A stretch of DNA of 64,000 nucleotides from Botryllus schlosseri. Taxonomy: Eukaryota. A program made the translations under genes and the position numbers. Positions within the stretch are counted from its first letter, which is position 1, and every line of letters begins with the position of its first letter. A model generated the notes under the pieces. The model ran no database searches and was not told the DNA's origin. It saw nothing but the letters and a program-made list of their open reading frames with translations. Below, one piece after another: positions 28,801 through 31,809 of the stretch. The DNA is taken from contig CM119371.1 in NCBI GenBank assembly GCA_051294905.1, forward strand, positions 4,156,001 to 4,220,000. The letters run 5' to 3'.

Positions 28801-31800
28801 AGGCGACACTGTTTAATATCCAATGAGTGAGTGAAATTTCTTAGGGGTTTGATTTATCCTGTTAACTACCAGCGATTCAATCACATCCAAGTAACGTATT
28901 TTAGTGACCGAGTATTGTGACGAATGACAATGGGAAAATTTCCAATTTCTCTGGTCGTGTGCGTTACACAATTAGTTCTAGTATGCATTCAGTGAACATC
29001 ATACAAATTGACAACAACTTTCCTTAGTTTGGTTACATGATGACAATTATTCTGGAGGTTCAAATCGATATCGCTACTATGAACAGCAATACAAACACAT
29101 TTTTGTAGATTTCAGTGTAGCACATAGTTCGATATTATTGTGATGGGTTTTGTATTAACCAAGACCAGTTGAATAGAATCCATCCAGTAAAGATACCTCT
29201 ATTTACTTTTTTGATGATCAAAGTCTAGAGTGTGACCTCGTAATGTTTTTACATTTCACGCATTTTCGACAGAGAGTGTGAACAGAGTTTAACACAGATT
29301 AAATGACACCGCCCCGGAGCCCAAAGTGATATTTTCGTACTGCGTAATGTGCGTATGTTTCAATTCGATGTCGCAGATTCCGACAATAAAGTATTGCACC
29401 GGTTGTTAATCAGCAAACGAAATTGTTGTTTCATCTTTAGTCTTGGTTACTGGAAACAATTACATTTGTAAAATATTTTCTGATATCCGCGATGCGCAGA
29501 GTGATATGTACCAAGGTGGAATAATTTTTCAATCATGAACATTTCAGACACGTATAGTTTACAACTCGATATGTTAATAACAACGGTACTGAAAAGATTG
29601 TTGTTGTCATAATAACCTTTACCACAACGCCGGGTCTAATTAACACGAATAATTTAATAATCAAGTCATGATCAACTATTACATATGGCACATCAATGTA
29701 TCAATCCTTATGTTCACAGAATGGTAACTTTCGATATAACACCAGCGTTCGATTGTAAGAAATGAACTCGCAACTATACGTTGATCAGACTTTCAAATCT
29801 CGTATACTCAAACATATTATGTTAATCTCAAGTCACCTGCACCGAGTGGTAATTACTTTTGTCTTACAAAATATATCGAGTAATAATTACTTTGTCTTGC
29901 AGAATATACCGCGTAGTAATTCCTCTATCTTACAGAATAGTAACGACTTTTAAAGTTGAATAAAAAAGATGTGTCGGGATATGAATACAACCGAGCTTGT
30001 TATGGATTTTAGGTTTTAGTGATTGTATGGACTCGTGTATGCTTGGCTGACTGCTTGAGTTGGTCGGGTAAGTTACAAACGGATTTACTTGCCAATGTTT
30101 TCCTGATTGACTGAGTATGGCAAAATGTTAAAATGTCGAGACCTAATACTTTATCCGTACACCCAATTATAACAAAACATAACCCGCATTCAAATAATAC
30201 GTAAGCTACAACTGGATTTAAAACTCGATGCTATTTTGTGGTTAACTCTAGTCAGTGGTCATGTTTGTGTAGATTTCAGGAATGATCATGACGAGTTGGC
30301 CGGGTAAATTAGTGGTAGTAACTATGACCGTACAGAGTTGCTGACATTCCAACATCTTTTACGCTGTAATATACGGATTACTCGTGATCATTTAATTCTC
30401 AGTTATTGTTCAGACATTCAAATCTCGTATACTCAAAATGTAATAGGTTATGTCAAGTCGTGTATGTACCGATTAGTAAATACTTTGTCTTGCAGTGTAG
30501 TAACGGCCTTTACAGTTGAATAAAAATTATCGGTCATATGAATACAACCAGGATGAATTAATTCAAGTTTGCGAGTTGTAGTGGTATAATCAAGTAAGTG
30601 AAAACTATATTTTTAACACCGGTTGATATTATGAATAATTCTTTTGAGTATGGTAAGATGTTAAAATGTCTCTTTGACAAACGGAAAGCCGGATCGTGAA
30701 TAGAGTTGTAAGGTTTCATTACTTGTTTCAAATCAATATGCGTATAATCTCTAAATATGACCGGGTTGAAATTTGGTAGTCTTGTTAGTCAATCCTATTT
30801 CAATTCACACTACGCCAAAGTCAAATTATTCGGTTTCGGATTATCTCAATTTACCTATAGAGCCCGAATGGATTCCGACCCGTGCTATAACTAGATCGCT
30901 ATGTCTGATGCATTATCCTGTCAGCGACGTAGGGTTTTACAATTATTTCACACCTTTTCGAATAAGCGTCAACTTCGCAAAGGATTTGGGTGGGATCAGA
31001 AATAAGTGAGAATTTGTCGGTATTCGAATCATCGTCTGCGACGGTTCTGTTATTCGTTACTTATTAAATTTTGCCAATGAAATCCAGTTCCTGTGACATA
31101 CCGATTATCAAAATATTACATTGTGGCGATTGGAATGTATGTAAAAACAAGTTGCGAGGGATGGCTATGTCTTAGGTGTTATCTCGTGAGTGATCGTGGG
31201 ATTTGCAACCTATTTCACACCTTTTTGAAGTGTTAGTTTGTGAACGCGGCTATTGTTGGTATCACCGTCTACGCGGGCTCTGTGGTAAACTAATTACCAG
31301 AATATTACATTGTCAACGATCGGCATGTATGTAACAGCGAGTCGCGAGCGATGGTTATGTATCAGGTATTATCTTGTGAGCGATCGCGGGATTTTACCAA
31401 TATTTCACACCTTTTTGGAGTGTTAGTTTGTGAACGCGACTATTGTTGATATTCGAATCACCGTCTACGCCGGCTCTGGGGTAATCTAATTACTCAAACA
31501 TTACCATGAGAGTAATTCCTAGACTTAGCAAACTATTTCACACCTTTTTTGCTGAAAGTACGACATGCCGCCCGCAGTCTATAAACGAAAGTACGAATCA
31601 CTACCGCATCCATAAGACACAATAGCCGCATGCCACCCCCGCCATAAGACGAAAACGTTAGTTCGCCACCCCCGCCATAAGACGAAAACGTTAGTTCGCC
31701 ACCCCCGCCATAAGACGAAAACGTTAGTTCGCCACCCCCGGTTTCTCGTTAGCTCGCCACCCCGCCCATAAGAACCCATTACGATCTGCGACCGATCGAC

Positions 31801-31809
31801 TATACTACT
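25857..31809 (-). repeat. Right inverted arm (5,953 bp)
   Basis: Reverse complement of 18922-24874, with eight substitutions found by eye and no net indel. Confidence 0.97.

Follow-up and report, generated by a model that had tools for sequence, protein, structure and literature searches.

Two elements that lie 8.2 kb apart on one chromosome of Botryllus schlosseri share the design of their ends. Both were found in a 64,000-nucleotide stretch (contig CM119371.1, positions 4,156,001 to 4,220,000), hereafter the window. The first, at positions 1-10713, is the right part of a Polinton that runs on beyond the window; the second is a long palindrome, the foldback, which by its sequence appears to be a non-autonomous, helper-dependent element of Polinton type. 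We give a probability of roughly two in three to the reading that the two represent sister Polinton lineages with a common terminal design, that the foldback is served by a helper family elsewhere and that the proximity of its neighbour is incidental. New here is the side-by-side comparison of two Polinton end types at one locus. Coordinates are collected in Table 1.

Table 1. Features of the foldback and of the neighbouring Polinton (window coordinates).
Feature	Position	Strand	Remarks
Foldback element	18922..31809	.	12,888 bp, 92% inverted repeat, AGTAGT...ACTACT ends
Foldback left arm	18922..24874	+	5,953 bp, 8 mismatches against right arm, no gaps
Foldback right arm	25857..31809	-	5,953 bp
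Foldback unique loop	24875..25856	.	982 bp
91-aa loop ORF (P0001), conserved orphan family	24926..25201	-	
Target duplication CCCGAC, left copy	18916..18921	+	6 bp
Target duplication CCCGAC, right copy	31810..31815	+	6 bp
Degenerate 190-bp tandem duplication in foldback arm	19238..19627	+	mirror near 31127-31452
41-bp tandem array in foldback arm	23720..23900	+	mirror 26831-27011
Foldback end homologous to Polinton end	31577..31809	+	mirror copy 18922-19154
Shared block, inner edge of foldback terminal array	31586..31650	+	global alignment
Three identical 33-bp units, foldback-type spacer	31634..31732	+	
Foldback 25-bp CCCCCGGTTT variant unit	31733..31757	+	second from tip
Polinton right end, 8-unit array and tip	10422..10713	+	10713 preferred end, 10716 possible
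Polinton copy of shared block	10431..10494	+	global alignment
Polinton 25-bp CCCCCGGTTT variant unit	10542..10566	+	fifth from tip
218-aa ORF, tandem OB-fold, putatively RPA/SSB-like	9401..10057	+	best E 1.7e-3, low-confidence model
Protein-primed DNA polymerase B (pPolB), 1,280 aa	3381..7223	-	PF03175, E 1.1e-7
Packaging ATPase, 189 aa	1558..2127	-	22 relatives among 67 candidates
Retroviral-like integrase	3..818	-	rve, E 1.8e-16; runs off window

The arms of the foldback are 99.87% identical, and complementary sequence makes up 11,906 of its 12,888 bp. Its ends carry the motif (AGT)2...(ACT)2 and CCCGAC flanks it on both sides; such ends, a 6-bp target duplication and terminal inverted repeats are the traits of Polintons/Mavericks in the accessible parts of PMC8097293 and PMC3014272 (comparisons with cited work here and below refer to the parts of each source available to us). 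The length of the foldback, 12.9 kb, agrees with that of intact elements in vertebrates, which span 12.7-24.6 kb, but its arms exceed the Polinton terminal repeat range of about 50-2,000 bp: at 5,953 bp they are about four times as long as the longest in vertebrates (46-1,447 bp; PMC8097293), and terminal repeats in butterflies measure about 2 kb (10.1101/2025.02.07.637071). The neighbour encodes the Polinton proteins pPolB, integrase and packaging ATPase; in the foldback no gene for pPolB, integrase, ATPase or capsid was recognised. Pfam scanning covered 24 of its 66 open frames of at least 45 aa, and none of the 24 matched pPolB, integrase or any other Pfam family above cut-off. The longest stop-to-stop frame measures 118 aa, and positions 9000-32000 contain no Rfam match.

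Which known elements does the foldback resemble? Non-autonomous Polintons in Repbase combine Polinton ends with the loss of the replication gene. The polB-less, gene-depleted Polintons of 10.1101/2025.02.07.637071 likewise keep their ends and obtain their functions in trans; the foldback differs from these in being almost wholly palindromic, in being commoner than the coding interior and in having an orphan gene of its own, and it is not the neighbour with its interior deleted. In the snap-back and copy-back type of defective viral genome (PMC13506859), both ends derive from one terminus and most of the molecule is complementary, as in the foldback. These are, however, mainly products of RNA viruses, transient and non-coding, whereas the foldback is DNA, integrated, inherited and part of a diversified family with a conserved 91-aa ORF. 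As for an arm that copies its parent's end, only the outer 233 bp of the foldback resemble the neighbour; further inward the arm is unlike any Polinton sequence in the window, and no parent end was found. Transpovirons are also linear DNA parasites of a DNA virus, but they encode a Tlr1-like helicase, which the foldback lacks, and belong to mimivirid hosts in protists (PMC11161782). Virions of Mavericks had not been observed according to the available part of PMC8097293. The literature that we searched, for the most part without subscription papers and supplements, describes no palindromic Polinton satellites, and its accessible parts neither compare Polinton subterminal arrays nor report how Polinton ends behave in transposition or binding experiments.

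The first-pass annotation had matched a block at the inner edge of the foldback array to the Polinton end with five substitutions and one indel. We reproduce this match, except that the quoted string ends at 31650 instead of 31649. Against the window without the foldback the block reaches a local score of 98, which none of 200 dinucleotide shuffles attains (maximum 33), and a 27-nt part of it that excludes the C-rich core still scores 44 (0/200 shuffles). The best place in the window outside the Polinton end scores 22. By blastn, 31577-31707 aligns with 10422-10549 at 79% over 131 columns (E 3e-23), and the four matches that arm plus loop have beyond the foldback itself are all to the Polinton end. 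That the block is confined, within the window, to the ends of elements, and does not match by chance, is thus supported. The similarity extends outwards: the outer 60 nt of the two ends align better than any of 1,000 shuffles, the similarity is weaker over the outer 40 nt (3/1,000), and in ungapped register the tips agree at 30 of 44 positions if the Polinton ends at 10713, compared with 12 of 44 if it ends at 10716. The whole end is therefore homologous, and not one block only, over some 230-290 bp. Inward of 233 bp, the foldback has no DNA match to the 10.7 kb of Polinton present in the window. Scans for the core motif elsewhere gave at least 119 stretches among contigs from metagenomes and 107 among viral ones. 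When both ends were compared by blastn with these 226 loci, five short matches of bit score 39-42 resulted, none of them to the foldback end; we take them as chance. The last Polinton base is left unfixed by the adjoining host repeat (10716-11097). This repeat has two more copies in the window, which sit in a 1.4-kb tandem duplication of 88% identity (35987-37454 and 37713-39108).

Both arrays consist of 31-33-bp units with a CCCC(C)GCCATAAG core, include a single 25-bp CCCCCGGTTT unit and end in ACTACT, as had been proposed, and the spacers inside the units do differ between them. The claim of a shared layout holds for this general build only: the arrays are not collinear, since the variant unit occupies a different rank in each. 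The Polinton has eight units, the foldback seven including one degenerate inner unit. Three ungapped comparisons of regular units give 14, 15 and 17 identities over the 17 bases at the unit start; a fourth comparison requires gaps. The inner units of the two arrays align with 28 matches, 3 mismatches and 1 gap, and the inner unit of the foldback shares 24 identities with the regular unit of the Polinton, compared with 19 with the regular unit of its own array; the foldback spacer thus looks derived, having spread through the outer units. Each 25-bp variant carries the spacer of its own family. Three outer foldback units are identical, which shows recent turnover. Judged by their letters, the arrays would have descended from a common design and then turned over separately. 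In contig set X6, a loose end at 10462 (15 contigs; one of 24 loose ends listed out of 6,361) marks a place where the inner block of the Polinton runs into letters like those of the foldback tip, a hint that other types of end may exist.

Two diverged ends in one genome form a natural comparison, in which hexamer, tip length, core and the short variant unit were kept and the spacers were not. The kept positions are candidates for recognition by polymerase, integrase or host factors, and a core that persisted next to an exchanged spacer may well be a binding site; the core bears a likeness, as we see it, to GC-box and YY1-type motifs. Could the cores have been retained without any such role? 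Edge units of tandem arrays can escape homogenisation. The inner block may be conserved solely because turnover is slow at array edges, so that the inner edge escaped slippage and only the hexamer tip matters. We regard this as a serious contender, though somewhat the less probable account of the cores. The block is indeed built of degenerate units of its own array at 31-33-bp spacing, and the identical outer units testify to recent turnover. Against it stand a core kept in the regular units of both families while the adjacent spacer was replaced, and the one 25-bp variant kept in both arrays; such position-specific retention suggests selection. A role or none for the cores bears on the cores alone, and the absence of a signal would be compatible with the reading of two sister lineages.

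Which Polinton, then, mobilises the foldback? Its derivation from a related but non-identical family, as first proposed, agrees with homologous ends that differ in spacers and unit order. The further proposal that foldback and neighbour constitute a helper-satellite pair fares poorly. A direct derivative of the neighbour's family would be expected to have near-identical termini, which are absent (30/44 at the tip), and the spacers, the rank of the variant unit and the lack of any inward match point the same way. To judge by these sequences, the two ends are too different for recent descent. Their proximity is uninformative as helper evidence, because 0.4-3.6 such close neighbours are expected by chance; these figures rest on counts that we took unchecked, of 300-740 palindromes and 54-60 Polintons, and on genome sizes of 200-600 Mb that we assumed. 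The claim of a physical pair in any case adds little, since helpers act in trans.

The pairing could be rescued if the integrase and polymerase of the neighbour's family read nothing but the hexamer tip and the cores, the foldback being their satellite. In favour of this, the two ends have in common the hexamer, the length of the tip, the core, the 25-bp variant unit and the inner block; even their outermost 40 nt are more alike than chance would give, and the foldback family is far commoner than the interior of the neighbour, as a satellite would be. We nevertheless think such cross-mobilisation unlikely. After the hexamer only 17 of 31 tip positions match, the neighbour's end seems to recur, at 88% likeness or more, in a different family that is abundant, and a mobile foldback requires no helper nearby. 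The reading frame of the ATPase in this neighbour copy, moreover, changes near 1582-1586 relative to its relatives P0009 and P0010, by decay or a sequencing indel, and the copy may therefore be damaged.

The evidence for another family at the neighbour's end comes from contigs of three runs (X1, X6 and X11, of which X1 may be the source sample), placed on the window at 88% likeness or more. Summed contig depth is no copy number, and only the direction of differences is used. Depth over 9784-10404 exceeds that over 7300-9162 by 22-, 27- and 16-fold in X1, X6 and X11, respectively. A terminal repeat would give a twofold step only, so that the neighbour's end and OB-fold gene seem to be present in some other abundant family too. 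Alternatively, the step, seen in all three contig sets, could stem from several autonomous families with a common outer kilobase and no satellites. The median depth of the foldback arm is 38-, 26- and 31-fold that of the Polinton interior in the same sets, and that of the loop bin 6-, 13- and 6-fold.

In the three contig sets, depth over the outer 1.3-1.5 kb of the Polinton (9163-10713), where the OB-fold ORF lies, is 4-27 times that over the interior. RNA reads in this stretch carry non-window letters in 17 of 17 cases at 9622 and at 9658, and so stem from other copies. Part of the foldback sequence occurs in 20 of 24 listed runs from nine studies, one of which may be the source sample; none of the runs listed is an RNA run. 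In one RNA run, of which about 6% of the reads were used, depth over the foldback is at most 2.5 per mate class, too low to inform on the loop gene. Most contigs that match the foldback differ from the window copy by 1-10%. Forty of 1,483 variant positions were listed; at all ten listed arm positions where family contigs differ, both arms have the letter of the window copy, and at eight of the ten the other letter makes up at least 80% of the depth in X1.

With two sister lineages, the history may have run as follows. Both ends would derive from one ancestral design comprising an AGTAGT tip, a 37-bp tip segment and an array of units of about 32 bp with a C-rich core. The lineages would then have replaced spacers and unit order separately, while core and innermost units stayed alike. 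An autonomous Polinton family elsewhere in the genome, itself with foldback-type ends, would most likely supply the foldback with polymerase and terminal protein, integrase and perhaps capsid, although no autonomous element with such ends was seen in the sequences analysed; the neighbour would belong to the sister lineage, seemingly with an abundant end-sharing family of its own. Copying would start at both of the identical ends and proceed by protein-primed strand displacement; the single strand would fold back so that one arm is templated anew on its partner, in the manner of the racket model, and the integrase would insert the product with a 6-bp duplication. We infer the identity of the helper, the route of replication and the role of the cores from this arrangement. 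A young, abundant, nearly gene-free palindrome with near-identical arms bears on the racket-shaped single-strand intermediate that has been proposed (PMC4196379).

The loop gene is the foldback's own orphan gene. All four candidate relatives are full-length, at 67-92% identity and on contigs of 0.9-1.1 kb, and 46 of the 91 columns of the family alignment are invariant. Among 1.84 billion representatives there is one real cluster; neither a Pfam or PHROG family nor a solved structure corresponds to the protein, and phage and viral contigs hold no relative. A match to a repeat protein was judged spurious. Its Atlas neighbours are weak (recognition 1429), its fold model is unusable (pLDDT 35), and it resembles neither the OB-fold ORF nor the 117-aa ORF. 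It does align in frame with residues 55-132 of the packaging ATPase, a stretch that begins ahead of Walker B, extends beyond the conserved arginine and lacks Walker A. P0001 and P0002 beat all of 1,000 shuffles against nine Polinton ORFs, but for P0004, P0003 and P0005 27, 511 and 854 of 1,000 shuffles reach the ATPase score, so that the signal is strong in two of the five members, marginal in one and absent in two. Profile-profile comparison with the ATPase yields probabilities of 3.3%, 0.3% and 0.6%, an ATPase profile does not separate the loop proteins from shuffles (12, 12, 200, 200 and 200 of 200), and there is no signal at the DNA level. The apparent likeness to a packaging ATPase is weak and unconfirmed.

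A bolder scheme would take that likeness at face value. At least two Polinton lineages would each have an inherited palindromic satellite, the shared core being read by host or viral factors common to both and the spacer, specific to each lineage, determining the choice of helper; the loop gene would be a packaging-ATPase remnant lacking Walker A that redirects or blocks the packaging of the helper. We see a slim chance of this. If true, the foldback would be an animal counterpart of phage satellites.

Might the foldback belong to another superfamily, such as Galileo/P, Mutator or hAT, with captured or convergent Polinton-like ends? Elements of the P superfamily have a P-type transposase and a longer target duplication. 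Galileo/Foldback, a member of the P-element superfamily, typically has long inverted arms with internal repeats (PMC3573991, available part). The foldback shares such arms, but its ends and footprint are of Polinton type. The target is followed by AG at either flank, which would also allow a duplication of 8 bp; we rejected this reading in favour of the 6-bp one, since the former leaves the ends asymmetric and the latter gives perfect AGTAGT ends. In addition, some 230 bp of the end are homologous to an element that encodes pPolB and integrase, and no transposase remnant was found by Pfam in the scanned foldback frames. We judge this origin improbable. Still more remote is an assembly artefact in which a read was folded back on itself: the arms are 99.87% identical and no contig in the three sets spans the locus, but the clean target duplication, the eight arm differences, the unique loop, the recurrence across runs and studies and loop-gene relatives on 0.9-2.0-kb contigs, as a collapsed palindrome would give, all speak against it.

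The window contains other repeats as well. A separate foldback-like element at 43218-46927 has arms that consist of 9-10-bp ATAAGTTT(T)C arrays and lie some 3.1 kb from each other. Clusters of a GGAGTCGGAGTCGG repeat with a 30-bp period, about 1.8 kb apart at 54443-56366, are possible ends of a small transposon. A family of 41-42-bp AT-rich repeats forms several arrays at 33850-34139 and 57079-59563, and a single 512-aa ORF on the forward strand (40636-42174) encodes a long C2H2 zinc-finger array with an 84-bp period.
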